From contig JBHGNT010000007.1 of assembly GCA_043228905.1 (NCBI GenBank), positions 14,880,001 through 14,944,000 on the forward strand: a DNA stretch of 64,000 bases, read 5' to 3'. Below are positions 8,783 through 62,216 of the stretch, piece after piece. Within the stretch, counting starts at the first letter, position 1. Each line of letters starts with the position of its first letter. A program made the position numbers and the translations under genes. The DNA comes from Azolla caroliniana. Lineage: Eukaryota; Plantae; Polypodiophyta. Under the pieces are notes generated by a model, which did not search any database, had not been told where the DNA came from, and saw only the letters and a program-made list of their open reading frames with translations.

Positions 8783-10796
8783 CTCCCCCTCAAGCTCTTG
8801 TCTGAATCGGTAGCTCTTGATTTGTCTTCTGGTTTCAAGCCCTTCACCACATCGGACCATGTCCAGGTCTTGGCCTTCTTCTTCCGGTCGGCTCTGTCCT
8901 TCTTGCCTCTGCCGTCGTTGCCACTTGTTCCGACTTGTTCGGATGTGTCAACTTCCTTTGTCGACTCGGCTCATTTCTTCTTCTTGTCTCTCCCTTTGTG
9001 GGTTCTTCCCTCACTGGCACAATCGGCAGTTTCTTTGCCTTTGCACGTTCCGGTGTCTTTGCCCGTTCTCCCCCTCAAGTGTGGCACGTTGAGATGCTAA
9101 ACACCAAGCATTTCGGTGAAGTGCTGCAACTTGTTCGTTCCGAGCTGTTTGGTGAAGATGTCGGCAACTCGCCGATCCGTATGAACATACCGAAGTTCGA
9201 CTTCACCGCTCAGGACATGCTCACACACAAAGTGGTAGTGCACTTCTATGCATCCGACAGCTGGGACTTGACGCAGCTGATTTCATCGAGTCCGAGTCCG
9301 GTGATGACTAGATCATCAACATACAGCAAGATGCAAACCGGACCGTCTGGACCTTGCCTGATGAACCACGAAGAGTTAGACTTGGAGGCCGCAAACCCCA
9401 TCTTACGCAACCGGTGTGTGATCTTCGCATTCCAAGCTCGGGGGGCTTGCTTGAGGCCATAAAGTGACTTCGTCAGCCGGCATACCACCGACTTGTTCAT
9501 CTCTTACTGGAAACCGGCGGGTTGGGTCATAAAGACCTCTTCTTCAAGATCACCTTAAAGAAATGCATTTTTCACGTCCATGTGGTGAAGATGTCACCCC
9601 CTTGCCGCAGTAACCACCAGCACCACACGAACCGTCGTCATCTTCGCTACCGGAGCGAAGGTCTCGTCGTAGTCGATTCCGTGGGTCTGCACATATCCCT
9701 TCGCCACTAACCAGGCCTTGTATCGATTAACTGAACTGTCGGCATTGTACTTGACCTTGTACACCCACTTACATCCGATCGGTTTACAATGTCGAGGAGG
9801 GACAACTAGGTCCCATGTGTCGTTGGCATCAAGTGCCCACATTTCTTCCTCCATAGCGGCACGCCAATTTGTGTACCTTGCCGCTTCTGCACAGCTCTCC
9901 AGCTCACGCACTTCCGCCACCTTGGTAATGTACACATAGTGATGTGTCATGTACTCATTGTACCCGTACCACTTCACAAGGCTCTTCTGGCGGGAAGACC
10001 GGCGTAACTTATCGTTACCCGGTTTGAGGCCCTTCTTGGCCGGTTCGGACTTCATTCTCGAAGATCCACCTTCATCCTTTCCGGAGTCGGATTCGCTCCA
10101 ATCCGACTCAACGTTTCCGGTTTCGTATTCCGGCATCTTCTTCTTCCCCTTCTCTTTGTGCGTGAACCGTCTCCTCAGTTCTTTGCGCGGGGAGAGCACG
10201 GCAAAGTCTCCACTACACGCCGGCTCGTCATCCAACTGGTCATCCCGATTCAGCCGCTCATTTGGCCCGCTCAACCAAAACGATTCTGGACTCAGACCTA
10301 GAGTCTCGAACCCGTCATCTTCTAACTGGACCGGTTCAGGCTCACTAGCCTCATCCTCTTGTATCGGGTCGGGGTCAGAAGTCGGAGCGGTAAGGCATAC
10401 CATGAGGCTGTCTCATCAAACTCAACATCCCGGCTAACTCGGACCTGTTTCATCGGGGGGTTATAACACTTATACCCCTTTTGCTCATGCGAGTAACCGA
10501 CCAGGATGCACTTCTCAGATTTTACATCCAAATTCCTTCGCTTCTCATCTGGCACATGCACATATGCAATGCTACCGAATATCCGAAGGTATCTCAAATT
10601 CGGCTTGTGCCCAAAATATAACTCATGCGCGGACACCTTGTCACCGATCTGGTTTTGGATATAGACTGCCATCCGAACCGCCTCAGCCCAGTAGAAATGG
10701 GGCATGCTCTTCTTCTCCAGCATTGCCCTTGCCGCGTCGACAATCAACCAGTTCTTTTTTTCGGCCACACCGTTTTGCTCCGGTGTGTATCTGCAA

Positions 10797-13700
10797 GAGT
10801 CGACTCCGGTTTCGACGACTCCCGGTTGTTCTGGTTTATCCAAGAAAGAGAACCACTCTTTGTGGCTCATCATGTGATTCGACACACCGGAATCAACGTA
10901 CCACACTTCCACCGATTCGGAAGTGGTCTTCTTCATCGAGTTAGCCTTGTGTTTCATCACCAAGGCTGGACCTTTATCGGCTTTTCCGATTTTGGATCCT
11001 CTCGATCCTTCTGCGTAGTGCGAGTATTGCTAGTTCTCTCTGTCGACCTTGTCGGATCCGGATCTATCCAAATCGGCCCGCTTCTTCTAGCACTCGCTTT
11101 TTTTGTTGCCCTTATTACCACAGTACCAGCATTCCGTGTCGGCCTTTGCTTGCCGCCCTCCAGCGTTGCCTTGACTCCCCCTGCTTGTGGAGGGTCCAGA
11201 ACTGTTGTCGGCACGTTCTCTGTGCCTTCGGTCCTACTCTTGCCAGCCGCTACCATTGCGAGCCGACCCGCCTCGTCCACCACATCCACAGGGCTGATTC
11301 GCCTCTGTGTACAGCATCCGGCTGTCGGTGGGTGTACTTGTTGACACACCAGTGTGGTTCTCCACAAGGAGCATCCACATTAAGTCGAAAAATGACGGCG
11401 TATTCTCCCTTGTACACACAGCAGTTCGGAACGCTCCGAACTTTGACGCCAAACCTCCACGACAAATTTGCACCATATCGGCTTCATTGGTGTCGAGGAT
11501 GAACATCCTCCCTTCTCTGCGCTCTTGCGCAATAATCTGGCCCTCTTCCTTGATGAAGCACCCAAGCTGCGTACACCACACCTCCATCCCTTTGTCAACG
11601 ATCTGACTGACTAACACCAAGTTCTTCGTGATCGTCGGAACATGTAATACGTTCATCAGCTTCCCCCTCTGTCCAACGTGGCTCAAAGGAACTTCTCTGA
11701 TATGCACAATTGGGTGACGAGTGTCGACTCCGGTTTCGACGACTCCCGGTTGTTCCGGTTTCTCCAAGAAAGAGAACCACTCTTTGTGGCTCGTCGTGTG
11801 ATTCGACGCACCGGAATCAACGTACCAAACTTCCTCCGATTCGGAAGTGGTCTTCTTCATCGAGTTAGCCTTGTGTTTCATCACCAAGGTTGGACCTTTA
11901 CCAGCTTTTCCGGTTTTGGATCCTCTCGATCCTTCTGCGTAGTGCGAGTATTGTCGGTTCTCTCTGTCGGCCTTGTCGGATCCGGATCTATCCGAATCGG
12001 CGCGCTTCTTCTAGCACTCGCTTTCTTTGTGGCCCTTATTACCACAGTACCAGCATTCCGAGTCGGCCTTTGCTTGCCGGCCTCCGGCCCTGCCTTCACT
12101 CCCCCTTCTTGTGGAGGGTCCGGAACTGTTGTCGGCACGTTCTCTGTGCCTTCGGTCCTACTCTTGCCGGCCGCTACCATTGCGAGCCGACCCGCCTCGT
12201 CGACCACGTCCACAGGGCTGATTCGCCTCTATGTACAGCATCCGGCTAATGGTGGGTGTACTTGTTGACACACCGGTGTGGTTCTCCACAAGCAACATCG
12301 ACTTTAAGTCGAAAAATGACGGCGTATTCTCCCTTGTACACACAGCAGTTCGGAACGCTCCGAACTTTGACGCCAAACCTCCAAGACAGATTTGCACCAT
12401 ATCGGCTTCATTGGTGTCGAGGAAAAACATCCTCCCTTCTCTGCGCTCTTGCGCAATAATCTGGCCTTCTTCCTTGATGAAGCACCCAAGGTGCGTACAC
12501 CTCACCTCCATCCCCTTGTCAACAATCTGACTGACTAACACCAAGTTCTTCATGATAGTCGGAACATGTAATACGTTCATCAGCTTCCCCCTCTGTCCAA
12601 CGTGGCCCAAAGGAACTTCTCTGATATGCACATTTGGGTGACGAGTGTCGACTCTTGTTTCAACAGCTCTCAGTTGCTCCGGTTTATCCAAGAAAGAGAA
12701 CCACTCTTTGTGGCTCGTCATGTGATTCGACTCACCGGAATCAACGTACCACACTTCCTCTGATTCGGAAGTGGTCTTCTTCGTCGAGGTAGCCTTGTGT
12801 TTCATCACCAAGGCTGGACCTTTACCGGCCTTTCCGGTTTTGGATCCTCTCGATCCTTCTGCGTAGTGCGAGTATTGCCAGTTCTCTCTGTCAGCCTTGT
12901 CGGATCCGGATCTATCCAAATCGGCGCACTTCTTCTAGCACTCACTTTCTTTGTGGCCCTTATTACCACAGTACCAGCATTCCGTGTCGGCCTTTGCTTG
13001 CTGGCCTCCGGCCCTGCCTTGACTCCCCCTGCTTGTGGAGGGTCCCGAACTATTGTCGGCACGTTCTCTGTGCCTTCGGTCCTACTCTTGCCGGCCGCTA
13101 CCATTGCGAGCCGATACGCCTCGTCCACCACGTCCACAGGGCTGAATCTCCGTTGTGTACAGCATCCAGCTATCGGTGGGTGTACTTGTTGACACACCGG
13201 TGTGGTTCTCCACAAACAGCATCGACTTTAAGTCGAAAAATGATGACGTATTCTCCCTTGTACACACAGCAGTTCGGAACGCTCCGAACCTTGATGCCAA
13301 ACCTCCAAGACAGATTTGCACCATATCGGCTTCATTGGTGTCGAGGATGAACATCCTCCCTTCTCTGCGCTCTTGCGTAATAATCTGGCCCTCTTCCTTA
13401 ATGAAGCACCCAAGGTGCGTACACCACACCTCCATCCCCTGGTCAACGATCTGACTGACTAACACCAAGTTCTTCGTGATAGTCGAAACATGTAATACGT
13501 TCATCAGCTTCCCCCTCTCTCCAACGTAGCTCAAAGGAACTTCTCTGATATGCACAATTGGGTGACGAGTGTCGACTCCGGTTTCGACGACTCCCGGTTG
13601 TTCCGGTTTCTCCAAGAAAGAGAACCACTCTTTGTGGCTCGTCGTGTGATTCAACGCACCGGAATCAACGTACCACACTTCCTCCGATTCGGAAGTGGTC

Positions 13701-14255
13701 TTCTTCATCGAGTTAGCCTTGTGTTTCATCACCAAGGCTGGATCTTTACCGGCTTTTCCGGTTTTGGATCCTCTCGATCCTTCTGCGTAGTGCGAGTATT
13801 GCCGGTTCTCTCTGTCGGCCTTATCGGATCCGGATCTATCCGAATCGGCGCGCTTCTTCTAGCACTCGCTTTCTTTGTGGCCCTTATTACCACAGTACCA
13901 GCATTCCGAGTCGGCCTTTGCTTGCCGGCCTCCGGCCCTGCCTTCACTCCCCCTTCTTGTGGAGGGTCCGGAACTGTTGTCGGCACGTTCTCTGTGCCTT
14001 CGGTCCTACTCTTGCCGGCCGCTACCATTGCAAGCCGACCCACCTCGTCCACCACGTCCACAGGGCTGATTCGCCTTTGTGTACAACATCCGGTTGTCGG
14101 TGGGTGTACTTGTTGACACACCGGTGTGGTTCTCCACAAGGAGCATCCAGTTTAAGTCGAAAAATGACGGCGTATTCTCCCTTGTACACACAGCAGTTCG
14201 GAACGCTCTGAACTTTGACGCCAAACCTCCAAGACAGATTTGCACCATATCGGCT
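10797..14255 (-). repeat. Tandem array of ~3.75 copies of a 924-bp gag C-terminus/zinc knuckle/protease unit
   Basis: CACCATATCGGCTTC recurs at ~11471, 12395, 13319 and 14243; the junction peptide is FILDTNE|ADMVQIC. Confidence 0.97.
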
Positions 14256-14759
14256 TCTTCGATATTCACATCGATGGAGGCCAGAGAGTCGCAAATGTCC
14301 TTGATTTTGGAGGTGTAGTCTGCCACCGACAAGTCGCATTGTCGTAGGTTGGTCAGCTCCTTCCAAAGTTGAAGCTTCCTGGCTATAGTGCTTGCGGCGA
14401 AAATCTTGTTCAGATTTCCCCAAGCATCTTTCGGCGTTTTTGCATCCTGAATGTAGCTTAGGAGTTGTTCGCCCACACAAGACGCGAAGCAGTACAGTAC
14501 TCTGCTTGCTGATTGTCCCACAGTAGGAAAGCTCTATGTGTCGATTCGGGTGTAGTGTCATTTGCTCCGTCGACATAGCTCCAATAACCGTGCCTGAGCA
14601 GGTACTGGTGTATCTTGTAGGACCAAGACGCATACTTGTTTCTGTCGAGCTCCTCCGTCAGAAGCGAGCTAGCCATGCCTATATCCATCGGTTTTACCTG
14701 TTCTTCTTGGTTGGTTTTCCTTTCAAGCTATGTCGGCTGTAGAGGTTCTCAACACTCTC

Positions 14760-17341: not shown

Positions 17342-17597
17342 TATCGTGAAGATTCTGGGCCATGGTGAGAAACCGGGGAAAATCGGAAGAATCGGCGGAG
17401 TGCATAATGTGCACTCACCCTTGTTAAAACGTGTGAATAATAGGGGGGCCTTAATGGCGCCGAGTAAGAGTTAATTTGGGACAGAGAATCCCTTGTAAGT
17501 CGGGATTTATCCCACCTTGTTCTATAAAAGGGAGGGTGTGGCCCTTGTAATGGGGTGAGGTTCCATAGCTTCCCCTTCGTGGGTTCCATTTTAGTGT

Positions 17598-17988
17598 TGT
17601 TGAGAATCAAGCTCAACTTGGTCTAGTGTGTGAACTCACCTTGAGAGTGAAGAGACACTCCAACGGTCAAGAGTCACCATTATGTCACCACTTTGTATTC
17701 TAGCATTTAGTATGAGTCATAGAATCATATTCTATGACACATAACTTATGAGCTTTCACATTCCCCATGCTCCATGAGGCTTGTAGTTAATGAAGAGAGA
17801 GGGTGACTACATAAAGCACCCTCCTCCCACCTTGTATAATGTTAAGTCTTTCTCCTTTGTCAATATAATTTTACCTTGCGTATTCTCTGTGTATTACTCC
17901 TTGTCTCTCTCACTCACTCTCTCTCTCTCATACACACAGAGTTCACACCTATTCCGCTTCACAAGAATCCATCTCTTGATTCTTTACA
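17598..17988 (+). mobile_element. Solo LTR of the A/B copia lineage
   Basis: TGTTGAGAATCAAGCTCAAC...TTCTTTACA; TSD AGTGT/GGTGT. Confidence 0.8.
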
Positions 17989-18188
17989 GGTGTTAATAAA
18001 CTTCTGTGCATAACATCCATTTCTATCTTCTCTTCATCTTGGGGTGAGTTGTCTCTATTCTTTGTTAGGGGTTTGGTGTCATCTATGTGCGTGCGTGGGC
18101 GGTCTGTTCAGTTGTGGCAGGCGGCGCACGGACTGTCTGCGCCTTTCGTGAGTTCCTGCTTGTTGGCTTCTCAGCACTCCACGGTCCG

Positions 18189-18191
<3 letters not shown>

Positions 18192-18235
<44 letters not shown>

Positions 18236-18250
18236 GGTGGGTGGGTGGGT
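18192..18250. repeat. (GT)n plus (GGGT)n microsatellite
   Basis: Direct reading of the sequence. Confidence 0.9.
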
Positions 18251-18328
18251 GTTGGCTTCTATCGGTTGTGACGAGCCCGCGCGCTAGGTGGTTCGTTGGT
18301 AGGTTTCCCTCCTTGGCGCACAAGACCC

Positions 18329-18749
18329 TGTTACCGGCCGGCAAGGAGTCCAAAATACGGAGTGAAGGAATTAATTAGATATGGTTGTAAATGAGCATAG
18401 TGTGGACGGACGGACTGGAAACGGTAGGCCGTTCCAGATCCGGACGGATCCCGAATAGGTGCGAGAGGCACCGTTTTGTACTACGGGCCGGAAACCTATT
18501 TAAAGGCCCGGACCCCATTGTAATGACAGCGGATAATTAATACAGTTTATGATGTTTATACTTCTGTCTTGATTTCCGTTCTGTATTTTACTGTTGTATC
18601 TTACGCGTGTAATTAACCAAAGCAATCTAATCGTGTAACCTACGTAAGTCGGTGTAATCGTTGAATCTTAATCCTATGCCGTAATCACCCTTTGGTGAAG
18701 TGTCTCCGTGACACCTTGTGTTAGGCCTTGTCCGGCTAAGCAAATAACA
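18329..18749 (+). repeat. Left LTR of D
   Basis: TGTTA..TAACA ends; TATTTAAA at ~18497. Confidence 0.97.
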
Positions 18750-18982
18750 CGGAGCAGCAGCAGCAAGCAGAGCAGGAAATTCGCTCGGATCGTTCGTTCT
18801 CCAACGAGATCCGGAGAGTCACGGAGGAATCTCTCCGGTTACGGCAAACTCGCGACCAGGACGACGGCAGCAGTCTAAGTAGTCTCCGGGAAACCGAACG
18901 ACTCCTGGAGGCGCTGGCAAGCGGAGAAAACGAGGCAGAAGCCTTTTCAGCCTACGAATCGAATTCCGAAGGGGGATACAGC

Positions 18983-20782
18983 GTGCATACGAACTACCGG
19001 AGCAGCAACGATAACCCCGGCGGCCCGGAGGACGACGGGTCGGATACCGTGCCGACTCCAGAACCGGAACCGCGCAACCAGGGCTATCCGGAACCACAAA
19101 CGGAAGCCGTCAACCCACCAACACCGGAAGTGGAAGAAGCAAAGCCACCGACACCAACGAAAGAGCCGGTGAAGGAACCGGAAAAAGAACTGGAAAAAGC
19201 ACCGGCAAAAGAACCGGAAGTGGAACCGGAGAGAAAACCGGAAAGATATCAACAAACGCCACTAAACCGCGGCCTAATACTGGACGACGACATGCCGTTC
19301 CAATATTCAAAGTATCGCGATGATCCGGACGCGGAAGCGCATGTTCATGACTTCGAGCAGACGTGGGAAGCAAATCACACGTCCCAGCGAATGACACCGG
19401 AGGATGAAGAACGCTCGAAGATAGCGGAATTCGGAGTCACGTTGGAGGGACCGGCGACACGATGGCGGCGGACGCAGGACCCGGCGACCATCACAACCTT
19501 TGCAGAATTAAAAGCAAAATTCTTGCATTTCTTCCACAAGGAGGTCGACCAGACGACAATGGTGAGCCTGTTTTATACGATCCGGCAGGAGGCAGGGGAA
19601 AGCATTCCCCAATTCGTCATCCGTTTCCAACGAATGCATAGCCAGCTTGCCCGTGCACCCCCGGAGGAGGAATTACGGACGATATTTTTAAACGCACTCC
19701 GGGAACCGTTACGCACGGTGTGTACGGTAATCGACTTTCGAGGATGCACCATCGACCAGGTCATTGACCGGGTCAGAGAAATGGAAAAGACAAGCTCATG
19801 GCTTACGCTGGGAACACTGCAACGGGCGTTACCCACCGAGGAAGATCTCCGGTTCCGGCAGGCAATTCAATGCACAATCTGCTTGAATGCTGGACACTCG
19901 GCAGTAGAGTGCACCATGCGCACTCAGTGTGTGATTTGTCAATCCAAGAGTCATACAACGGACCGGTGCGAGTACAACCTGTTAAATCGACAAGCACCAC
20001 CCGTCCGACGGATCGAGCCAAGAAACAGCCGAGACGAAGATGACGATCGTTGGCAAAGAATGAACCGGTACCCACCGGCACAGGATGTCCGGTACGGAGA
20101 CAGGCAAGAGAATGATGGCCGGTACGGGAATCGGCGTGATAACTACGACCGGTATGAGCGATCGGACCGTTATCGGGAGCTCAACAGACGACACGAGCAA
20201 TACGACAGAGACCATTCCCCTGGTTACCGAAGGCACCAAGAGGACTACGGCCAATTTTACGATCCACCACGACCGGACTACCGAAATAAAAAGAATAATA
20301 AGAAACGTAATTTCAAGAAAGGTGGTCATACTAGGGACCCGGAACAGGGAACCCCAAGGAGCCAACCGGCACAGAACGCACCACTCACTACGGGACCAAC
20401 TCCGGATACCAACAAAGCTGAATCCAGCAATACCCGTAAAGAGTACTGCTATTACTGCAGGCAGGAAGGCCATTACAGTAACCAGTGCCCGGCAAAGAGC
20501 TACGATAAACGACCGGCAGTTAATATGGTGGTTCCGGAAGTGACGGATATACAGCAAGTAACCACACGGTCGAAAGGCATGGCCAAAGAGTGGGAAACAC
20601 AAGAGGCCATACGAAAACAGGCGACGGAATGGGTGAAGGAAGCCAATGAAAGGAACGTCGCGGACACGGAACGGCAAAAGGCGAATACCATAGGGAGTGC
20701 CGGCGGTAGCCACCCAGAAAACGAGACATGGCAAGCACTGCAAGAATGTCAGATCACGTTGCCATTAGGAAGACTCTTGTAG
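18983..20782 (+). CDS. gag: Gag of D (capsid-like domain, three CCHC knuckles); true start uncertain
   Basis: IRQEAGESIPQF motif; CTICLNAGHSAVEC, CVICQSKSHTTDRC and CYYCRQEGHYSNQC. Confidence 0.88.
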   Translation: MHTNYRSSNDNPGGPEDDGSDTVPTPEPEPRNQGYPEPQTEAVNPPTPEVEEAKPPTPTKEPVKEPEKELEKAPAKEPEVEPERKPERYQQTPLNRGLILDDDMPFQYSKYRDDPDAEAHVHDFEQTWEANHTSQRMTPEDEERSKIAEFGVTLEGPATRWRRTQDPATITTFAELKAKFLHFFHKEVDQTTMVSLFYTIRQEAGESIPQFVIRFQRMHSQLARAPPEEELRTIFLNALREPLRTVCTVIDFRGCTIDQVIDRVREMEKTSSWLTLGTLQRALPTEEDLRFRQAIQCTICLNAGHSAVECTMRTQCVICQSKSHTTDRCEYNLLNRQAPPVRRIEPRNSRDEDDDRWQRMNRYPPAQDVRYGDRQENDGRYGNRRDNYDRYERSDRYRELNRRHEQYDRDHSPGYRRHQEDYGQFYDPPRPDYRNKKNNKKRNFKKGGHTRDPEQGTPRSQPAQNAPLTTGPTPDTNKAESSNTRKEYCYYCRQEGHYSNQCPAKSYDKRPAVNMVVPEVTDIQQVTTRSKGMAKEWETQEAIRKQATEWVKEANERNVADTERQKANTIGSAGGSHPENETWQALQECQITLPLGRLL

Positions 20783-23700
20783 CTCGTGCCGCGATTCACG
20801 GAAGGACTAAAAACGGTCATGACAGACGGTATAGCCCCACCGGCACCAGTCCTCTTCTCGAATCCGGAGGAGGGACCGACAGTGGTGGACACTAGTAGTC
20901 CGGTGATTACAGCTATTGTCAAAGGGCACGAACTTCCCGGTACCGTAATCGATGGAGGTTCCGGAGTGAACGTAATAAGCCTCCGCACGTGTGATGCCTT
21001 GGGTATACATGAATGGGAGCCATGTCCGTTCTGGCTACGAATGGCGGATATGAGCTCTGTACGGCCAACGGGCTTAATACGGAAATTGGAGGTCACCATA
21101 GGAGGTCACACATTTCACATCTCGGCTGTAGTGCTGCAGCTACAGGCGCAAGGCGCGTACCCACTGTTGCTGGGCAGACCATGGTTGAAAACAGCACACA
21201 TCAAGCAAAATTGGCGGAAAAATATGATTACCTTCCGGCGCGGAAAAGCCAAGGTCCGGGTACCGACACAACCACGGACGAGCAACGGTAAGGAATGCAC
21301 ACCGCTGTATGCGGAATGCGTGAACATGCTTGAAGGGTTGGCAGACGACGAAGAAGCTCAGTACTTGGAGGAACACCCAAAGATCGTACCACTCTTCGAG
21401 ATCGACGTAGCTGAAGCCGTAGCCCCATACTTGCCGCAGCGGGACGACACCGAAGCCGAACTAGACAAAGATGCGATTCGGGAATTACGGCAAGCACAGG
21501 AAGCATTGGAACGGGAAATGGCCGTTTCCCAACGGGTAAAAGCATCCCAGCTCGACGAAGTGAACCTAGGAAGCAAGGACGAATCAAAGCCGGTTCACAT
21601 CGCCAAGGAAATGAAGCCGGAAGAGAAAGCGGCGATGATCAAACTTCTCACGGAATTTCGCGACGTATTCGCCTGGTCATACGAGGACATGCGAGGGCTG
21701 GACCCTCAACTATATCAGCATCAGATCCACTTAGGCAAGGACGCGAAACCAGTGGCGCAAAGACGTTACCGAATGAACCCCAACTACGCCGCCAAAGTAA
21801 AGGAGGAAATCGACAAACTCCTAAGAGTGGGCTTCATCCGGCCGGTAAAGAAAGCGACGTGGCTGAGCCCCATCGTCGTCGTCCCCAAGAAGAACGGTAA
21901 AATCCGTGTGTGTGTAGATTACAGGAAACTAAATGCAGCCACAATTACGGATGCATTCCCTCTTCCGTTCACGGATGGAGTACTGGATGCCGTCACCGGC
22001 CATGAAGTTTATAGCTTTTTAGACGGCTTCAGCGGATACAATCAAATCCGGATGCACCCCAACGACCAGGAGAAGACAGCGTTCGTCACCGAATGGGGGG
22101 TGTTTGTGGCCGAAGTCATGATGTTCGGCCTAAAAACGGCACCAGCAACTTTCCAGCGAATCATCATGGAGATCTTTGGCGAATACATTCCTGCCTTCGT
22201 GCAAGTTTTCCTGGATGATTTTGCAGTCTATAGCCGGGGAAAAGACCATTTGCAGCACCTACGGTTATGCCTTGAAAAGTGTAGGTTATACCGGCTAAGC
22301 TTAAACCCAGCAAAATGCATCTTTGGAGTTTCAAGTGGAATCTTATTGGGACACATTGTAAGTAAGGAGGCATTGCGGTCGACCCGGACAAAGTAAACGC
22401 GATACTAGGGGCACCGGCGCCGAAAACGGCCAAAGCACTAAGCCGATTCTTAGGACAGATCCGGTGGCACAGCCGGATGCTCCGTCACTTGGCTGACTTG
22501 GCTACACCATTACACACCGCGGTACATCGGACACCGTTCCAATGGACGGATACGGAAGATAAGGCATACAATGCCCTGAAGGTACTTTTATCGCAAGCAC
22601 CCGTCGTGCAGCCTCCGGATTGGAGCAAGGAATTTCATGTGTTCGTGGACGCTTCCGACATCGCTATTGGCAGCGCTTTAATGCAACTTACGGAGCCTAA
22701 ATGGTACCGGCCGGTATATTACGCCAGCCGGAAGCTGTCACAAGCGGAGAAGAACTATTCCACGACGGAACGGGAGGCCCTGGGCATGATCTACAGTGTA
22801 ACAAAGTTTCGTCATTACCTATTGGGAAGGAAGTTCTCCTTTCATGTGGATCACTCGGCGCTCCTGTACTTAGTGTCCAAGGCGTCCCTGACCGGTAAGT
22901 TGGCCCGTTGGACCTTGCTGTTGCAGGAGTTCGAATTCGAGATCTTCCACCGCCCCGGTATCCAGCATGCCGTAGCAGACTACCTGAGCCGGTTAGAGTC
23001 CGGAGAAGCAGGCGACGGAGTAGCGGATGAATTCCCGGACGCAGAGTTATTCCGTATCACCCCGGAAACGGCAGCGGACGACACGGTGGCATCAGAAGAT
23101 AGGTGGCTGACAAACATGCACCAGTTCGTAAGCACGGGCCTGCCACCGGAGGAAATGAACCGGGACGAGAGGAAACAACTGGCGGTGCAGAGCCGCAATT
23201 TCTGTCTGTTACGGGACACTCTCTACCACAAAGGAGCAGATGGAATATGGAGACGGGCAGTCCGTAGTGACGAGAAAGAAGTAATCTTACGGGAAGCACA
23301 CTGTGGGGTTGCCGGAGGACACTATGCCGGGGAAGCGACGGCGAGAAAAGTATGGCAGAGCGGCTTGTGGTGGCCCACGACGTTAAAAGACGCCGTCAAG
23401 TACGCTAAGGAATGTGACCTATGCCAACGAATGGGCCAGCCTACGGAGCAAGCACGGATGCCACACCAACCGGTACTTCCACTAGAGCCATTCCAGAAGT
23501 GGGGGTTGGATTTTGTCGGACCGTTCAAGCCACCGGCAATGAGAACGGGTAATCGTTATGTCATAGTGGCAACGGATTATTGCACTAAATGGGTGGAAGC
23601 TAAGGCCCTGAGAGACAACACCGCGTCATCCACAGCAAAATTCCTGTACGAAAACATTTGGTGCCGATATGGATGTCCGATTGAATTAATCAGCGACCAA

Positions 23701-24531
23701 GGAGGGCACTTCCTCGGCCAGGTAGTGGAAAGCTTAACAACGTTCTATGCCGTGGTCCACAAACGAAGCACACCGTACTACCCACAGGCGAACGGGTTAG
23801 CAGAGTCCACCAACAAAACGCTGCAGAACATTCTCCGCAAAATCGTCAATGAAAACCGCACGGACTGGGATACAAAGCTCCATAGCGCGCTATGGGCGTA
23901 CCGAACGGCATACAAAACAAGTATCCGGACAACACCGTTCCGGTTAGCATTCGGCTTAGAAGCGGTCATGCCGGTGGAATTTCAGGTACCAAGCTTACGG
24001 ATCCAACTACGGGAACGGCTGAATGAAAAGAAGTCGGAGGAAATGCGGCTAGCAGCACTATGCGAACTGGAGGAGCAACGGCTGGCCAGCATCCTACACA
24101 TGGAACTGGAGCAACGATGACGGAAAGCGTTCGTTGACTGTCACCGGAAAGGTAATGAGAAGATGTTCGAAATCGGAAAGCCGGTGCTAGTATTCTAAAC
24201 GAGGATGGGCAAGATGCCGGGTAAACTCCGGTTCAGATGGACAGGCCCGTATTGGCTGACACGGGAATACAACGGGTCCTATCAGATAGGGACACTTGCC
24301 GGTGAAGTACTAGGCAAGTGGGTGAACGGATTTCGACTAAAGCCCTATAAAGGACCGATGCCAAAGAACCCGTTTATGCAGCTCACCGGCACTACACCGG
24401 GAACCTGTCCGGGATCGGTACGGATCGGTCCGGAAGAAAAAGACGACGGGGAACCAGTAGCAGAGGCGAAGGAAGACACGGCAACCCGTAAGGAAAACGG
24501 TAAGGGTCCGAGGGGACCTACGGATGTGTAA
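20783..24531 (+). pseudogene. pol: Pol of D (PR-RT-RNase H-INT) with one frameshift and two stops
   Basis: VIDGGSG; RVCVDYR, MMFGL and FLDD; FVDAS and EREAL; HHCC, LDFVGP, SDQG and NGLAE; WTGPY. Frameshift ~22370; stops at 24118 and 24196. Confidence 0.93.
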
Positions 24532-24904
24532 GGTCACACACCGTCATTAAAATAAAAAATAAATAAATAATAAAAAATCATTAAAAATCGAGGTATGAAC
24601 GGGTGTGAAAGCAAGGCGCGAAAAGGTACGTAGTGGGCATTTAAGAGCCGCCACGTACTTAATACTAAATCGGTACACGACGTGCGCATGCTCGAAAAAA
24701 GGCGCCAAGACGCACAGAGAAAAAGAAGAGCGCATGGAGACCTTCTTTTTTCGCGAGCCAAGAAGCACAGAAGCACCAAGGCAGTGGAAGCTGAGCAAAC
24801 GCGAACCTGCACGCAGAGAACCCCCGCGCTCAGAACGCTCTCTCTCTCGCTCTCACTCTCATCACCACTCTACTTCGCCATCTTCCCTCAACCTAGAAGC
24901 AGAC

Positions 24905-27575
24905 ATGGAACCACAAACGCTGTCGGAAGCGGCCAGGAAATGGTTCAGGCAACACGGACTGGAGGGGTTCTTGGCCATCATGGAGGCACCGCCGCACAGA
25001 GAAGCCGACCGGGTCATCAAGGAGCTCGCCACAGAGGTCATCACCGAGGAAGCGATCCGTGCGCTGACAGGCCTTCCGGAGGGAGGAATCTTTCAGGTCG
25101 ATAAGCCAACCTCGGAGCAACTCATCCGATATTTCGGTGAGTACTCTGTTGCCGGCAAAGGCTATCGGACGCAGGGCGGCGAAGATCCACTATTCAGGGA
25201 GATAGCTCGAGTGCTCCATGAGTACGGTCACGTGTACCCCCGACCCCCTGTCATGCCAAAAAATCGGGCAGGGATGATCATAGCCACCTATGAAGGGATC
25301 AAGGTGGACTGGCCGGTGTTGATTGCAGACGGTTTGTGCACGGCAATCGACATGGTACGAGGAAAGGACGGCAAGGAGGGCCGGAAGCTGTGGCACGCCG
25401 TAGCTCAATGGATAACATTGCTCGTGCCGCCGGTCGAGACCGTCCAGCCAAAGAAGCGGCCAAGAGTATCGGAAGGAAGCACCTCGAAGCCGGCGTCCAA
25501 ACGACAGCAGCTGCTGGCGTCGAAGGCGACGAAAGGGAAGAAACGGGTCCCAGAACCGGAGGAGGTGTCACCGGTCCGACCCGTCAAGATAACCATACGG
25601 AGACCGGGACAGAAGGAACCGGAACCCTTGACGGCACAGAAACATGCCGTGACACAGGAAGAGGAAACGGAGGAGCCAGAAGAGCACCTCCAACGACGGT
25701 CAAGAAGTAGGACTGCCGAGACAGGAGGGGAGCGGTCGTACCCGCGAGAGGCAGAAACGCCCCCAACTCAACCTGAGCAAACCACAAGGGAGGAACCGGA
25801 ACCGGTGCGTAGGGAACCGGTCTTGTCGACTTCTATAGAAGAAGTCATTCCAACGGCTCCGGAGACGGCGAGAACCGGAACTCAACAGCCGGCGAGCCCA
25901 GCCAGAACACACGGCGGCCAAGGAGTAGAACCAGAACGGCATATGCAGGCACTCAGGCCAGACAATTCCACAGTGAATGAGCCGACCCGACCAGTACAGC
26001 AACAAGGCACCAGTAGCATGTGGCTACGGTGGGTAGGCGAGCAAATCGCCGGAGTGGTCGAGTATATAGAGGCGGAAGAGAGAGCGCACCAGGAACGGTT
26101 GCTCGTCACAACCGTAGATCTAGAGACGGCCCGGTCCAGAATCCGGAGCCTTGAACAAGACTTGGACAGGGTCACAAGGGAAATGGCTCAAGTGGCTTTG
26201 ACAACACAAGTCCAAGCACCGGTGACTCCGGGCAATGTACAGAATAAAGCGGTAGATCAACCTGTACATAGCAATCAGACCCCGGCAACGGAAACCGTTC
26301 CGGAGAGAAATGCGGCACAAGCCCAAGAGCTTGCGGATTTAAAGGATGAGCTAGCTGCCCAAGAAGCGCTGAGGAGCCGCGAAAGAGAATTGAAGACGGC
26401 AGCAGAGGCAGAACTCAAAAAGACTGCTGAGAATCTACGCCGGGCCGAGGAGAGCTTACGGAAAGGCCACCAAGCGTACGACCGGCTCAAGGAGGAGAAG
26501 GAGAAAATGCTGCAAGAGAAGGAGAGGCTTCGGAGGAACGCCGAAACAGAAGTAGAGCGCCTGAAAGAGGAACTCCGGCAGGTAAAGGACCGGGAGGACC
26601 GGAACCATCGCCAGATCAACGGCAAGCTCAAACAAAAAACGGAGGAATTTGAGCAATTGCACCGGGAGTATAAACGGTTGCAAACGGAGCACAAGGAACG
26701 GACGGATGAGCTCCGGCAAGCAGTTGATCGGACCGCAACCGCATTCGCCAAGGAACAAGCGGAAAACAGAAGACGGTTGGAAGAGGCGGAGAAGGTTCGG
26801 ACAGAGCTCCTCAGGCAACAGCAGGCGGAAAAAGAAAGAGCGGCGGAGGTACTGCAGAGGCTGCAAACGACATATCAAGGGCAGCTGACGCGCTACAGAG
26901 AGCAGGCGGAGGATACGGCAAATCTCATCAAGCAGTTGAAGGAGGAGCGACAAGTGGTGGAAAGCAGAGCACAAATGGGAGCAAGTCGCATCCAGGATAT
27001 CATGCGGGCTTGGTTGAACCAGACCAAGAGCTTGATTGACAACGGTTCCGTCAAATGGTGGACCAAGTGGGCCACGAACGCGGCGGAACTCCAATTGCTC
27101 CGGGCTGACGTAGCGAACCGGCGGAAGGAGGGAGATGATTGCTATATGCTGAATTCTGAAGATTTCACCGGCATAAGAGATGAGCTGGTCGAAGACTTTC
27201 AAGCCTTGGCAGAGGACCAACTAGAGCAAGTCCGGCAACTTGTAGCTCAGCTGGACGACGACAGGCTGGAGGCGCAGATCCAGTTTGAAAGCTACGAGAG
27301 GTCCCGGATCCGGGGAAGAGAAAGAACGAGAACCAGTTACGGTCAACCTCAGTGATGAGGAACCGTTACTGGAAGGAGACCGGACCGGAAGCAGACAAAC
27401 GGAGCAACCGGAGTCAGCGAAACAAACGGAGCAGCAGCAGCAAGCAGAGCAGCCGGAGCAGCCTCAGTCCCAACCGCAACCACAGCAGCAGCAGCAAGCA
27501 CAGCCGCAACAACCACAACCGGAAGAACAAGTGGAAATTCTTGAACAAAGTATTTTGGACAATTTGGGTGAATAA
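24905..27575 (+). CDS. Extra 3' ORF of D, unknown function (globular N-terminus, long coiled coil, Q-rich tail after a probable frameshift at ~27315)
   Basis: Open 24605-27355 with a likely ATG at 24905; continues in another frame to 27575; E/K/R/Q heptad-like composition. Confidence 0.75.
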
Positions 27576-27619
27576 TGAAGGGTTCGACGTACAAGGTACT
27601 GTCCCACGGGCATGCCATG

Positions 27620-28040
27620 TGTTACCGGCCGGCAAGGAGTACAAAATACGGAGTGAAGGAATTAATTAGATATGGTTGTAAATGAGCATAGTGTGGACGG
27701 ACGGACTGGAAACGGTAGGCCGTTCCAGATCCGGACGGATCCCGAATAGGTGCGAGAGGCACCGTTTTGTACTACGGGCCGGAAACCTATTTAAAGGCCC
27801 GGACCCCATTGTAATGACAGCGGATAATTAATACAGTTTATGATGTTTATACTTCTGTCTTGATTTCCGTTCTGTATTTTACTGTTGTATCTTACGCGTG
27901 TAATTAACCAAAGCAATCTAATCGTGTAACCTACGTAAGTCGGTGTAATCGTTGAATCTTAATCCTATGCCGTAATCACCCTTTGGTGAAGTGTCTCCGT
28001 GACACCTTGTGTTAGGCCTTGTCCGGCTAAGCAAATAACA
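27620..28040 (+). repeat. Right LTR of D
   Basis: Direct repeat of 18329-18749, followed by GACCC. Confidence 0.97.
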
Positions 28041-28608
28041 GACCCAACTTGAGTGGGTGACCCCTTGCGCTGCCTGTAGGCGACTTGGCGACAGGAGGTG
28101 GTCATTCTGGAAGAGGCATGCCCTGCATGAGGGTCTCGTCGCGCGAACGAGCCTGGAAGCTCCCCGACCGGCCCTAGGATGCAGGCTCCCTCTTCCTCTC
28201 CGTGTGGAACTAGCGTCACGTATGTATGTGTGTGTGTGTTTCGGGTAAGCGTAGGGTCTGAGAGTAGGTGCGCACGTGGTCGCCGGTGTAGAGGTGTCGG
28301 TTGTTACCGGGTGTGTATATGTGTGTGTGCGTGTGCGCGTGTGCGGGGACGCAGTTAACCGGGTCGTGTCCCGTACCTCTTTTGGGCCCCTTGTACATAC
28401 AGGCGGAAGGGGCGGCAAGGACAAGGGCGCGCTCTCTCACTTCCCATGCGATTACCGGTCGCATCTGGAGAGTATCCGGGAGCGAACCGGCCGGCAACGC
28501 GGCAAGCTCCGGAGGATACGGGTTCCCTGCAACTCCTCTCCTCTTGGACCATGACCCCGGTGGTCCCGCCTAGATCCGACATGCAAGCGCGGATTACCAC
28601 GACATCTT

Positions 28609-28625
28609 TGGTGAACCCGACGTGA
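28609..28625 (+). promoter_or_regulatory. PBS of E (tRNA-Trp)
   Basis: TGGTGAACCCGACGTGA is complementary to the plant tRNA-Trp 3' end (tRNA sequence recalled, not searched). Confidence 0.85.
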
Positions 28626-28643
28626 AATAAGGCAGCAAAGGAA

Positions 28644-38961: not shown

Positions 38962-39238
38962 GAGATCATTGCCTCTGTTGTAACCGCCGCCTGTGGCGAA
39001 GATAATGAGCACGAGGTCGTTGCCTCCGTGAACTCACTGTTGTAATCATTGTGATATAGTGATAGTTTGGAGTCTGTGGACTCCCGTGGTTTTTCCCTCT
39101 CAGGGTTTTCCACGTTAAACATCCTGTGTTGTCTTCTCTCCTTTGTGTCGTGCTTTCATTCCCCGTTTTCTGCGTTTGATCTTAGACTCGGTTGTGGTCG
39201 AGCGGTGTTCATCGGAGCGTGCAGTTCCTGTCAAAAAC

Positions 39239-42200
39239 ACCCCACACGTGTACCATAGGAAGGAAACCTTGTACTATAGATAGGAAATTTTGGTTCTCCG
39301 ACAACAGAGGTTGTACGATAATCGGCATTAGCGGCCCGGAGAAGAAACGGGCGGAGGGACGTCTCAGGGTGTGCGGAAACCTAGGCACCGACGACGACAT
39401 TGGTGGAGCTGTGGAGACGGTCTCTTTCGACGACACCCTAGGGGAATTAAAGAGGGTGTTCGAAGAAGGCCTCAGCGAAGACCGGACGATTCCGATTAGT
39501 TCGGAAATAATGTACGAAGTCATCGCCGACTTCGGGAAGAGGGTCGAGTTGGATCGGACGGCCCATGTGCATACGAAGCACAAGATTGTGGACCGGAAGG
39601 TGAGGCCAGTTGTGGTACCCTTGCCGGAGGGCAGAGAGTTGCGAATGAAAGGGGTCGCGTCGGACCCAAGTCTACGAGATCCGGCGGACATAGGACACCG
39701 GTTCACCAACATAACACTATGGGAGCTCAAGGTTGGTGGGGCTAGCTTTCTACTGCCGACAGAGGAGGAACAGTTTCAAAGAATGCTCGAGAGGCACAGG
39801 AAGGGCTTCGCATTCTCGCGGAAGAGATCGGGTGCGTGGACCCGATGGTTATCTTCACAGTACCGCATGTGCCGTGGAATCTCAAACCGATTCCAGTACC
39901 CAGAGCTCACATCCCGAAGCTGATGGAGCTGCTGAAGTAGAAGGTGGAGATGGGCATGCTCGAACCATTAAGTGCCCCATACTCGAATCGGTGGTTTACC
40001 GTGCCTAAGAACAACGGCACGGCCGGTCAACAAGGTGACCATTCGGAACGCAGGAATCGGACCGACCATTGACGAGTTCGCGGAGGCCTTCGCCGGAAGA
40101 TCGATTTGCTCGGTCGGGGATCTGTACTTGGGGTACGACCAATTCCAACTAGCCGTGGAGAGCAGGGATATTACGACAATGCAGACTCCTCTCGGCCTAG
40201 TGCGGATGTGTACCCTTCCGCAAGGGGGGACAAACTCGGTAGCGCACATGGTGAATGCGATGAATAAGGTGCTAAGGGACTGCATCCCGGACATCACCAT
40301 GCCGTTTTTGGATAACATTCCGATCAAGGGATGTCCGGTGGAGGATAAGGACGAAACGGTCAGACCGGACGGGTGTCGGAAATTCGTCTCGAACCACATC
40401 GGAGAATGTGAGAAGGTGCTACAGAAGCTGGAAGGCGCACGGCTCACCTTCTCCTGGGAGAAATCGGCTTTCAGACAATCGAAAATCATCGTCGTCGAAC
40501 ACCTGTGCGGGCCTTATGGCCGGAAGCTGTCTCCGGCTAAGGTTGAAGCTATCTCTGCGATGAAGGAAGACTACAGGTCGGTTACAGAAGTCCGGAGGTT
40601 CTTGGGAGCTTGCGCGTTCTACCACATTTGGATACCGCATTACGCCCATATCGTGGAGCCGTTCTATGGGTTGTTGAAGAAAGGGCAGAAGTTTGAACGG
40701 AGCGGGGAGCATGCGGAGTCGGTCCGGAAAATGAAAGAAGCACTTGTCGCGGCACCGGCACTCCAGAAAGCGGTCTACAGTAAACATGTTCCGATTTATG
40801 TGACCGTAGACATGAGTCCGACCAGAATCAGATGGGTGATCAACCAGGAGGATGAGAACAGCACGAGGTTCCCCATCCGGTTCAGTGCGAAAGTACTTAG
40901 CGAGCGACAGCGAGGATACGCCCAGGTTAAACGCGAACTCTAGGGTATCGTTTCGGCGGTCAAGGCCGACAAAGACTACCTGATCGGGATAGAGGTAGTA
41001 ATAGAGACGGACTGTCTACCGATTCTCGATATGGTTTTCGGATGCGAGACGCCGGACCTAGCAATGCTCAGGTGGATAGCGTACATTAAGTCCCTGAATC
41101 CGGAGATACGGCACATCTCCGGGAAAGACAACGTCATGGCCGACATTCTTTCGAGAGAGAGGTTTGATGACGAGAGCGGCATGTTTTCGGAGGATGAGCA
41201 AGTCAGCGTGGACTTCTTCGAGACGGCTTACGTGACGACAAGAAAGGGGAGCACTCCGACGTTTAATGAGTTCGACGAGAGCAAGTACGATGTGGAGTGG
41301 CTCCAGATCACTGGGTTCCTGAAAAAGATGGCGCCGGACGCGGCATTTACAAAGGAAGAGGCTAACCGGATCCGGAAGAAAGCGTACCAATTCTTCCTAC
41401 GGGACGAGAGCATATGGAAGCACCCGAAGAAGCGAGATGGCGTCCCACTCTAGGTGGTGGCGAAGAAGGAGGAGCAGGAAGCATTGTTGATGGCATACCA
41501 CGAGAGTCCTTGGCCCGAACATCGGGGGACATGGGCCACGTTCGAGAAGTTGAAGGAGAAGTACTAGTGGCCGGGACTGTATCGGGATGTGCATCGGTTC
41601 GTAACGACTTGTGAAAGCTATCAGATGCATTCCATAGTCTGACATCGGGACGAGTTGCACCCGACTTACCCGCCGACCATCCACTTCAAGTGGATGGTGG
41701 ATCTGGTGATGATGTTGATGGGGGTAGGGCAGATGCGATACCTGGTGCTAGCACGAGAGGACCTGAGGAACCAAGTGGAGGGTCGAGCGTTACCAAACAA
41801 GATGATCGCGGCCGTGTGCCGGTTCCTAATCGAAGAGGTGGTATGTCGGTACAGGTGCGTGGGGAAGATCGTAGCGGACCGTAGAGAACTAGATGCACAA
41901 GAGGTCGAAGAGTTGTTTGATCGGTTAGGGGTTAAACTCTTGTTCACCACAGCGTACAATCCAGAGGCAAACGAGAAGGTGGAACACGGACACAGGCCAA
42001 TCGTAAAGGCGTTGGTACATGCATGTGAAGGCCAAGTCAGGAATTGGCCGCGGCTCCTACCTTACGTGTTGTGGGCTGACCGAACTACACACAGTTCGGT
42101 AACCGGATTCATACCGGCGGAGCTTATGTACGGGCAGAAGCCGATCATGCCGATGGAGCGAACGATCTCCTCGTGGGCCACAGTGGACTAGAGAAACGAG

Positions 42201-42635
42201 ATGAGCCAGGAGGAGCTGTTAGCGGCACGAATCCGACAGCTCGAGGGAAGACCGGAGGACGTGGAACGAGCAACAACGAACCTGCGTGCGGCAAGGACAA
42301 AGAACAAGGGACAATTCGACCGGACTCACTGACTACGACCGAAGAAAATCGAGGAACGCGACTGGGTTCTGGTCTACGACAGCAGCCTCGACAACCAGCA
42401 CAAGGCAATGAGGAAATTTGCGAGGAGGTGGTTCGGACCTTACACGGTGACAAGCGCCAACGACAACGGCACCTACCATCTCACGGAGCTCGACGGAACG
42501 AGGATAGTTGTGCCGGAGGCCGGGAAGAGGATCAAGGCGTTCAAGAAGCGGCACGAGGACGAACCGGATCTAGAGGACATAGATAGCGACGGCAACCGGT
42601 TCGGAGCGGATGGCGATCCGGAGAACGAAAGATAA
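39239..42635 (+). pseudogene. pol: E pol remnants (RT, RNase H, integrase)
   Basis: DLYLGYDQF, LPQGGTNS and PFLDN; TVDMS and KREL; WMVDLV, TAYNPEAN and WFGPY. Confidence 0.9.
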
Positions 42636-59680: not shown

Positions 59681-61971
59681 TCAATTAGGGCCCCCTTTCT
59701 TAAAGAATTTGCCACCTTGCTGACCTATCCCTGTTCCTTCCAGGCTACTGTGTAGAAGAGATTTCGCATCTGGGCTCCATTTGAGCTCCTTCAGGTTACA
59801 AAATTGGAGAGAAAGCTCTGGACTTATATCGATGTCTTTGATATTGTTGCAGTATATCACTCGAAGAGCTTGAAGCTCTTTATATGCCATTACTACCATT
59901 TCTAGCCCCACTGTTGTCAGAGGTGAGCATCCTTCTAAAGAAAGAAGCTTCAGACGCCTGCACGATAATAGTAAAAAATGCCAAAGCCAAGAATCAAAAC
60001 GAAAGGCTGAAGGCATTGCTTTCGATTGAACTCCAATTGAAAAACATGTTTTCAAAAAAACTAAAATACAATTCTGAAGAAATATGGTTTCAAAACACTC
60101 ATATGAGAAAACATTTTCCAAAAAATCTGCTTACGACACTTAATAATATGTTTTTGAAGCAAATGAAGAATAGTTTTTGGAATAATCAAGACAGAAATCC
60201 CAAGTATGCGTTTCTGGAATATATTCCGAAACAAACAAATGAAATATGTTTTCAAAACAACTCCCACAAAAGAATACATTTCTGACACAATCAAATACAA
60301 CCCGAACGTAATAAGTTTTTTAAAAACACTATCATGAAGAATAAACTTTCAGATATATTAAAATATACACAAGGCTCGTGTGGACTTGAACACTTCTGAA
60401 GCAATCCCAATGGAACCTTGAAAGCCTATATTTTCAAAACATGTGATCAAAAATTGCATTCCTTATTACCTGCATGTTGATGCGAAATAGAAGATGTTAT
60501 CATCCAATCCCCAACAATCTTCAATCTCAAGCTCCCGGATATTCACACTTAACATCATAAGCGCACAAAATCCAGCACCATCTCTGAGATTACATCTAGC
60601 AAGCTGAAGGCAATCTAATGACATACAATAACCAAGATGCTCGAAAGGTCCAGGATGAAGATCAATCTGCTTACAATTCTGTAATCTGAGTGTCTTTAGG
60701 CAGCTACAGAATGAAAGACCGGCAATCCATCCATCATAAAACATGTGATTGGATACTGTGAGCTCTTCTAGCATCATACAACATTGGCCAATGGCAGCTA
60801 TACCATCATAACTACCTTCACAGCCACTCAAATCAAGCTTAACGAGACGATTACAACTTCTGGCGAGAATCGTTAGACCTATGTCTGTGATTGAACTTCG
60901 ATAATACTCGCTTACATAACCAATAAGACGCATTATCTGTAGATTTTTGCATGCTGAGATGGCATTTAATGATTCGTCTGTGCAGTGATGAATCTCTAGT
61001 TGCTGGAGAGTTAGGCATTTCTGAGCAATATAAGTGAGTCCATGATCATAGCTATCATGAACAAAAACGGATTCTTCAAGTTTTACAACTTTCATCAAGT
61101 CAATTTCAGTCAGTTTTTGTTCTAGTTTTCCTTCAGATATGGCTTTGACATCATTGGCAAGCTCTTGTGCTGCTTTTTCTCCATCAGGTAATATAGATTC
61201 CAGGCCATTCTCAAACTGATTTCCTTCTGTTTCATGTGCAGACATGGCTTTCAAATTGTTCTCAGCCTGTTTTTCTTCCTTTCTTCCATCGTCAGAAGCA
61301 AGACCCTCAGATAAGGAAGAATCATTGATCAATCCATAGCTAAATAAAGAAGGATCGATCTCAGGTTTTCTGACATCTACAACACACAGGCGTTGTAGAT
61401 CTGGAAATGAATCAGCCAAGATCTTCATACCTTTGTCAAGAGTAGAAGGAAGTATTTGCTGGTTTTGAATAAATCTTTCCAATGATGGAATATCAAAAGC
61501 TTCATGAGCATCAAGATGAATGCTCAGGAAACTGTGCGTCAACCGAATGTTGGAGAAATTCTGGTTGCTTGACATTGCAGAAAGACAAGCAAAGGAAAGA
61601 TCGATGTCAGTAAGGTTTGGAAACCTGTAGGAAATTCGTTCGTTTTCAAGAAATCGCCAATCTAAAACCTTAATAGAGCTTCGAAGGAGACCTTGTAGTT
61701 TCATCCATCTCTTGCAGACTTGCGAATATGGATATGGAGAAAGAGGAAGAAATCGTAAGATCCTTAACATAACTTCATCATCCAAACACTGTGTTAAATC
61801 CATGGAAGCTTCGACGGTACTAGTAGTAATAGCAGTAGTAAAACCTGTTGAGACCTTCCATGGATCGATCTTGTTTCCCAGTCCTTTAATTCTGTGCATG
61901 CCCTTACCTTGAGATTGTTTCTGATGATGATATTGTCTTTCGTTATGGTTATGAAAGAAATCATGAAGCAT
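59681..61971 (-). CDS. F-box/leucine-rich repeat protein (At5g07670/At5g51370-like), 2 coding exons (61971-60470, 59957-59681), ~592 aa
   Basis: F-box DLTQCLDDEVMLRIL..SQVCKRW; cysteine-containing LRRs (ITDIGLTILA, LDLSGCEGSYDGI, LSLEGCS.LTT.GLE); phase-2 GT-AG intron. Confidence 0.92.
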
Positions 61972-62216
61972 TTTCTTACCTCCTTCAGCAACAGCATTGC
62001 AGTACTATAATTGGCGATGGCAGCTTTAGGAAGAGTTCTCTCTCACACACACACACTCTCTCTCCCTCGCCCTTTCTTACCGTGCTACAAAAAAAAAGAA
62101 ACGTAGAGAGAGAGAGTTGGGGGGGGGGGGGGGGGGGGTTGATTACAGAAAGAAAGGAGACGATTGAGACAGATGGAGAGGCTATGGCCACAAAGCAGAA
62201 GGAAAGAGAAAAACAG

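Follow-up and report, generated by a model that had tools for sequence, protein, structure and literature searches.

LTR retrotransposons and retroviruses, as a standard, prime their second DNA strand from a polypurine tract (PPT), and an LTR can be rebuilt only when plus-strand synthesis starts at the U3 boundary. To our knowledge, the known variety of primers, which covers whole tRNA, half tRNA and self-priming, is used for the first strand in all cases. The available part of PMC6317226 describes it as the rule for most elements that a primer binding site (PBS) follows the 5' LTR and a PPT precedes the 3' LTR. In the accessible text of PMC8599865, m1A58 is described as a stop for reverse transcriptase (RT) in HIV-1 plus-strand strong stop.

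Here, we analyzed a window of 64,000 nucleotides (the whole stretch of DNA under analysis) from Azolla caroliniana, contig JBHGNT010000007.1, which contains a Ty3/gypsy element named D. In D, a reversed tRNA site stands at the position of the PPT. From sequence comparisons, we estimate with a probability of about 0.8 that host tRNA-Arg(UCU) primes plus-strand DNA, annealed to this reversed PBS on the minus-strand DNA outside U3.

Structure of element D and its 5' junction

Element D occupies 18329-28040 of the window, its LTRs are 421 bp each with 1 mismatch between them, and the target-site duplication (TSD) GACCC is found at both flanks. The domain order is gag-PR-RT-RH-INT, all on the + strand, and the acidic motifs of RNase H are present in the RNase H-integrase frame. 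The features are as follows.

18324..18328, no strand: left target-site duplication GACCC, from LTR/TSD comparison
18329..18749, + strand: 5' LTR, 421 bp, TG...CA
18740..20782, + strand: gag frame (Retrotrans_gag, zf-CCHC), stop to stop, the stop preceding pol
18750..18775, + strand: aberrant 5' junction in the window copy of D, 26 nt identical to 27427-27452
20783..22396, + strand: protease-RT frame of D
22366..24120, + strand: RNase H-integrase frame of D, in a frame different from RT in the window copy
24599..27355, + strand: 3' extra ORF (eORF) of D, 918 aa
27427..27452, + strand: donor of the 26-nt piece found at the aberrant 5' junction
27580..27587, + strand: reversed PBS block 1, GGGTTCGA, identical to tRNA-Arg(UCU) nt 51-58 (T arm)
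about 27588..27601, + strand: 13-nt hairpin insert between tRNA positions 58 and 59 (A58/G59)
27601..27617, + strand: reversed PBS block 2, GTCCCACGGGCATGCCA, tRNA-Arg(UCU) nt 59-76 including CCA
27618..27619, + strand: 2-nt spacer TG, from CCA to LTR
27620..28040, + strand: 3' LTR of D
28041..28045, no strand: right target-site duplication GACCC

The eORF has no match to a Pfam family, Athila ORF-1 included, and only weak leads were obtained for it in the protein Atlas (best 0.79, all below 0.9), in Streptophyta clusters. Family matches to aRH and chromodomain were also absent from D in the Pfam scan. An LTR of a second gypsy element (window about 17500-28640 and 39186-42586) contains D; the PBS of that second element starts with TGGTGAACCCGACGTG at 28609 and is presumably that of tRNA-Trp. 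A relative (in L125) has a 4-bp ACGT TSD, which fits the Phygy description (NCGN TSD). Elsewhere in the window, a 924-bp unit occurs in about four copies in tandem within a copia-like element (10796-14257), and a 512-aa frame on the - strand (60466-62004) has weak F-box and LRR matches below the curated cut-offs.

In siblings of D, the left LTR is followed by CAGTTT and then TGGCGACCACGAT, which is complementary to host tRNA-Arg(UCG). Generally, the ordinary 5' PBS in siblings is short (10-13 nt) and its tRNA depends on the family, being tRNA-Arg(UCG) in families D, D2 and G and tRNA-Arg(UCU) in E and F. The tRNA PBS that characterizes Ty3/gypsy elements after the 5' LTR is present in these siblings and lost in the window copy, in which 26 nt from 27427-27452 replace the 144-nt PBS-bearing leader, through a 14/15-nt homology with the gag start, and leave the copy 118 nt shorter in net. 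Among 40 candidates scored, such a PBS-less 5' junction was found in the window copy only. The loss is likely an accident of that copy and a dead end, and a faulty strand transfer was probably its source. The idea that the element transposed with the architecture first described holds for the 3' site.

The missing PBS misled the preliminary description, which was made from the window sequence, toward a replicated RNA antisense to the mRNA. A genome antisense to gag-pol, or a one-off rearrangement of the window copy, would agree with a 5' end without PBS, and we consider both extremely improbable. Among the distinct LTRs obtained with the 5'-junction query, 15 lead into an ordinary PBS, 8 come after the reversed site and 3 have neither of the two. 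Moreover, tRNA-Arg(UCG) plus CCA, used as control, is located at U5 ends in all 30 sites examined (from 100) and at U3 in none of them. Normal PBSs and tRNA-Arg(UCG) copies at the U5 end speak against an antisense genome, as does the clade-wide occurrence of the 3' site against a one-off rearrangement.

Two other primer candidates were also rejected. The 26-nt repeat after the left LTR is private to the window copy, and self-priming, in which the 3' site would serve the 5' PBS, does not apply to D, D2 and G, whose PBS is complementary to tRNA-Arg(UCG) and not to the 3' site. Since these three families use tRNA-Arg(UCG) at the 5' PBS, tRNA-Arg(UCU) has no minus-strand role there.

The reversed tRNA site before the 3' LTR

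The 3' site of D corresponds to tRNA-Arg(UCU) from about nt 51 to nt 76, in two blocks, minus one C and with a hairpin between A58 and G59. The preliminary description had named tRNA-Arg(UCU) as the counterpart, and ARAGORN indeed predicts tRNA-Arg(tct) genes with the 3' end ...GGGTTCGAGTCCCACCGGGCGTG in the host genome (523 Mb). Its observation that the match continues into the T-loop past the 13-nt hairpin agrees with the full identity of block 1, and the gap and the transition that it counted were both found again: one C of the C65/C66 pair is absent from block 2, and a G>A change is present at 27612. The latter is almost private to the window copy, with G in 29/29 siblings and in all other compared 3' junctions. 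In the window, 1 match to the site was obtained against 0.01 expected by chance (2 mismatches allowed). The last 15 nt before the 3' LTR are 53% purine, versus 80% in the copia element of the same window (control). The PPT that is usual in Ty3/gypsy elements is missing from D, and its position is taken by the reversed tRNA site throughout the clade. The spacer after CCA varies elsewhere (GG, AG, CG, TC or TA), and it is 4-5 nt long in some families.

The reversed tRNA site is a clade-wide feature, not limited to the window copy. The exact pattern of the element's match to the tRNA-Arg(UCU) 3' end plus short spacer has 2,535 matches in the genome, while the reversed control pattern has 0, which confirms the inverted PBS reported before the right LTR of D. 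These matches adjoin many LTR families with unrelated LTR starts and are without a purine tract. A search for a family with a reversed tRNA-Arg(UCG) site and 2-nt spacer gave 2 matches genome-wide. The site is present in 30/30 best loci from a search of the genome with the 3' region, a query that itself contained the site. In a motif-independent sample (20 of 150 integrase matches taken), it was found in 5/5 D-clade elements with a locatable 3' end, whereas 5/5 elements of the Athila-like sister family H of the same genome have an ordinary PPT; the remaining 10 loci had no usable 3' junction. The RH-INT identity to D is 69-98% in D-clade elements and 45-47% in family H. In addition to its PPT, family H has an Athila-type PBS, which we take to be that of tRNA-Asp. 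In the comparison of both junctions across copies, which was proposed earlier, a normal PBS follows the left LTR of siblings, and a reversed site in place of a PPT precedes the right LTR.

In a scan of metagenomes, at least 124 sites were obtained by selection on the motif. Among the 124 matches listed, the eORF was found upstream in sense in 44 and in antisense in 0, with no match in 80. Because 77 of 78 named loci come from one assembly series, maybe of the same or a close species, they add family diversity and not taxonomic breadth. The viral contig collection gave neither a relative nor a match to the motif. One motif match (L229) without hairpin and T-arm block was rejected as likely due to chance. 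In one copy (L131), the hairpin is precisely deleted and the site is almost colinear with the tRNA. Degenerate repeats that resemble tRNA-Arg(UCU) also form a cluster at about 19.55-19.59 Mb of G000 C4 (L041 and L042).

The hairpin inside the site was evaluated in 60 of 83 distinct junctions, which have near-canonical spacing and were picked by eye. In these, 93.7% of 300 cells are paired, compared with 13-48% for slid partners. Compensatory double changes occur at 5/5 pairs and the covariation score was reached by 0/500 shuffles, although such covariation counts are inflated by the relatedness of the sequences. When mutual information was calculated for all 83 junctions, the top two pairs were both stem pairs, and all four combinations were found for the two variable stem pairs. 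Cofolding of the tRNA with the minus strand, with RNA parameters as a stand-in for the RNA/DNA hybrid, gave two helices with the hairpin extruded (-47 to -52 kcal/mol, versus -26 to -30 for shuffles, sd 4). Speculatively, the hybrid might be shielded from RNase H, or the register of RT be set, by the hairpin together with the bulged C.

Joins of tRNA-Arg(UCU) to LTR ends and the proposed plus-strand priming

The element site is without one C that the tRNA has, and the C count marks the source of a sequence. There are 30 exact genomic tRNA-type sites with CCA, including 7 at a U3 start, 1 in the middle of gag, 19 as U5-end PBS copies and 3 unassigned. The U3 joins at left LTRs, one near-exact site included, represent four independent events in four families, and each has the spacer of its own family. 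For example, the join of D at C2 contains tRNA nt 20-76, TG and the LTR, and lies in a locus that was amplified in tandem and also holds a full element. In D2 at C20, 18 nt of tRNA, TG and the LTR (TSD 4/5) are preceded by a partial LTR, rebuilding the end. The join of F at C16 reads LTR, 5' spacer, exactly nt 59-76, AG and LTR; it occurs twice, left of a full element with perfect TSD, and the 3' site of F itself differs from the tRNA at several positions. The G join at C2 begins with the tRNA at about nt 28, has A58 misread as T, and continues with the spacer TATG, the LTR, the native PBS and the internal region. CCA and the misread A58 indicate mature tRNA as the template of the joins. Because of tandem rearrangements, more than one history is possible for the loci at C2 and C16. 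In the control, the minus-strand primer tRNA-Arg(UCG), such U3 joins are absent from the 30 sites examined.

Mirror products at the U5 end, where the PBS is extended to 18 nt and a jump follows, are common. Several ordinary U5-end PBS copies (L039, L032, L076, L079 and L290-L293) were left out of the plus-strand count, and L104, which resembled a remnant of the element's own site at the left end, was rejected, as it is cut by a nested insertion. In L388, an LTR with an 18-nt PBS copy runs into telomere-like TTTAGGG repeats, as if a cDNA end had been telomerase-capped.

The joins also bear on a primer in cis, which would be element RNA around the site that survives RNase H, with the hairpin helping, and acts like a non-purine PPT with its end at CCA; template jumps of RT would then account for the tRNA joins. 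We regard this account as unlikely. A fixed end at CCA plus a spacer is compatible with any primer, the hairpin also forms in RNA, and two loci have the tRNA joined at odd places. In L381 (G000 C21:4842471), a D LTR end, the 5' spacer and 18 nt of tRNA-Arg(UCU) are followed by gag, which sets in at the counterpart of window 20554. The tRNA-gag join, with no more than about 2 nt of homology, would result from either ectopic priming or an RT jump. L363, a chimeric element, has a mosaic tRNA join at its 3' LTR. These two loci show that RT can jump onto tRNA-Arg(UCU), so the joins alone are no proof of priming, and a jump from RNA onto packaged tRNA at the 11-nt homology would give an identical join sequence.

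However, a cis primer leaves the two-block identity with tRNA-Arg(UCU), over about 25 nt and in many families, unaccounted for. All left-end joins found have the CC of the tRNA and never the single C of the element, which also disfavours the tRNA-mimic RNA end offered in the preliminary description. Furthermore, the element-type 3' site precedes a 5' LTR in 0/60 sites examined, and no 5' acceptor strand for a tRNA-like fold was seen. Priming of the plus strand by a tRNA instead of a PPT, as suggested at first, is supported by the family-wide conservation of the site, the PPT-bearing sister family and the tRNA-to-U3 joins. The only conserved feature of the U3 boundary is a site complementary to the tRNA at PBS distance, which makes priming by tRNA-Arg(UCU) on minus-strand DNA the simplest account.

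The same tRNA might instead prime on an antisense transcript of the 3' end, with two RNA templates involved and not minus-strand DNA. On antisense RNA, the site would have the geometry of an ordinary PBS, and identical joins are expected, but an antisense promoter and the packaging of a second RNA are demanded, while minus-strand DNA is there in any case; we find such a template very unlikely. It is highly improbable that the primer is a 3' tRNA fragment (18-22 nt tRF), or that the main role of the site is to be a target or decoy of such fragments. Exactly 18 nt are found in 2/4 joins, but about 46-57 nt of tRNA are present in two joins, and the T-arm block lies beyond 22 nt. At the 5' PBS, too, stops as a rule come at 18 nt, as a stop at A58 would predict (m1A58 being assumed for tRNA-Arg(UCU)).

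With intact tRNA-Arg(UCU) on minus-strand DNA, replication could proceed as follows. A first tRNA would prime minus-strand DNA at the 5' PBS as usual, and after the first jump RNase H would clear the RNA and expose the reversed site. Then tRNA-Arg(UCU) would pair via its T arm and acceptor end, which would leave one C bulged and the hairpin extruded opposite A58/G59, and RT would extend the CCA end across the spacer into the LTR. The tRNA would be removed by RNase H and the spacer trimmed by integrase. If the removal fails, the minus strand would copy the tRNA onto the left end, often to nt 59, and the observed joins would result. It is also quite probable that the clade, being without PPT, primes both DNA strands with host tRNAs via a reversed, hairpin-split PBS on the minus-strand DNA; two tRNA-Arg species would then be used in D, D2 and G, and one would be used twice in E and F.

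Three inverted chimeras (L361, L362 and L371) have the 18-nt PBS copy of one family joined to the antisense-read 3' site of another element. Since an 18-nt PBS copy and a 3' site are complementary, they can capture each other, and the reversed site may have originated from PBS copies captured in this way. At L362/L363 (G000 C3, about 8.087-8.095 Mb), G-type LTRs surround an antisense D fragment, and the chimera is apparently inserted in a tRNA gene, presumably one for tRNA-Phe.

If plus-strand priming by tRNA-Arg(UCU) is true, a clade with thousands of recent copies uses a tRNA for its second strand and breaks the PPT rule, and the mechanism is likely new. An RT that extends a tRNA on a DNA template, while its own RNase H spares the primer, becomes testable, and the PPT-using sister family in the same genome is a natural control. 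Moreover, annotation tools that need a PPT or orient elements by the PBS may misjudge or invert such elements, and tRNA pools and fragments would gain a second control point over transposition.

Comparison with known systems

The nearest named proteins come from Adiantum for RT (61-69% identity) and from Riccia and Calypogeia for RH-INT (39-46%). In a tree of the integrase region only, built from 59 of 121 rows without lineage-labelled references, D is nested (98/93) among elements of Riccia, Calypogeia and angiosperms that lack aRH, and is separate from the aRH-bearing rows. From this placement, D appears to be an Athila-like Ty3/gypsy element. According to the available part of PMC6317226, D is similar to OTA/Athila in domain order, 5-bp TSD, the lack of an aRH or chromodomain match and a 3' extra ORF. 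Unlike OTA/Athila, it has a tRNA-Arg PBS where tRNA-Asp is dominant, and its U3 boundary carries the reversed tRNA site in two blocks but no PPT. D also differs from OTA/Tat in having no aRH domain, and the D clade, with 5-bp TSDs and an Arg PBS, differs from Phygy, which has a 4-bp NCGN TSD and a tRNA-Trp PBS (same part of PMC6317226). The moss Tat-like elements without aRH are likewise non-chromoviruses of non-seed plants, but they are reported without extra ORFs, whereas D has its ORF of 918 aa at the 3' side (accessible part of PMC4408406).

No description of a reversed tRNA site was found in the accessible parts of PMC4408406 or PMC7466625, and no report of a tRNA-primed plus strand was found in the partly available literature covered, outside which lie subscription journals and Repbase-type reports.

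In HIV-1, as in the D clade, tRNA copies end at nt 59, here at U5 and also at U3 ends; the HIV-1 tRNA primes the minus strand only, unlike what is proposed for the D clade (accessible text of PMC8599865). The yeast elements Ty1 and Ty3, as far as described in the available part of PMC5371799, resemble D in that the tRNA is held by its acceptor end and T arm in two separated blocks, in their short 5' PBS, and in dead-end plus strong-stop products that copy the tRNA. However, the two-part site of Ty1/Ty3 is on RNA and primes the minus strand, and their plus strand is primed by a PPT, whereas in D only the minus strand of the two-part site is the complement of the tRNA, and the site stands at the position of the PPT (PMC5371799, same part).
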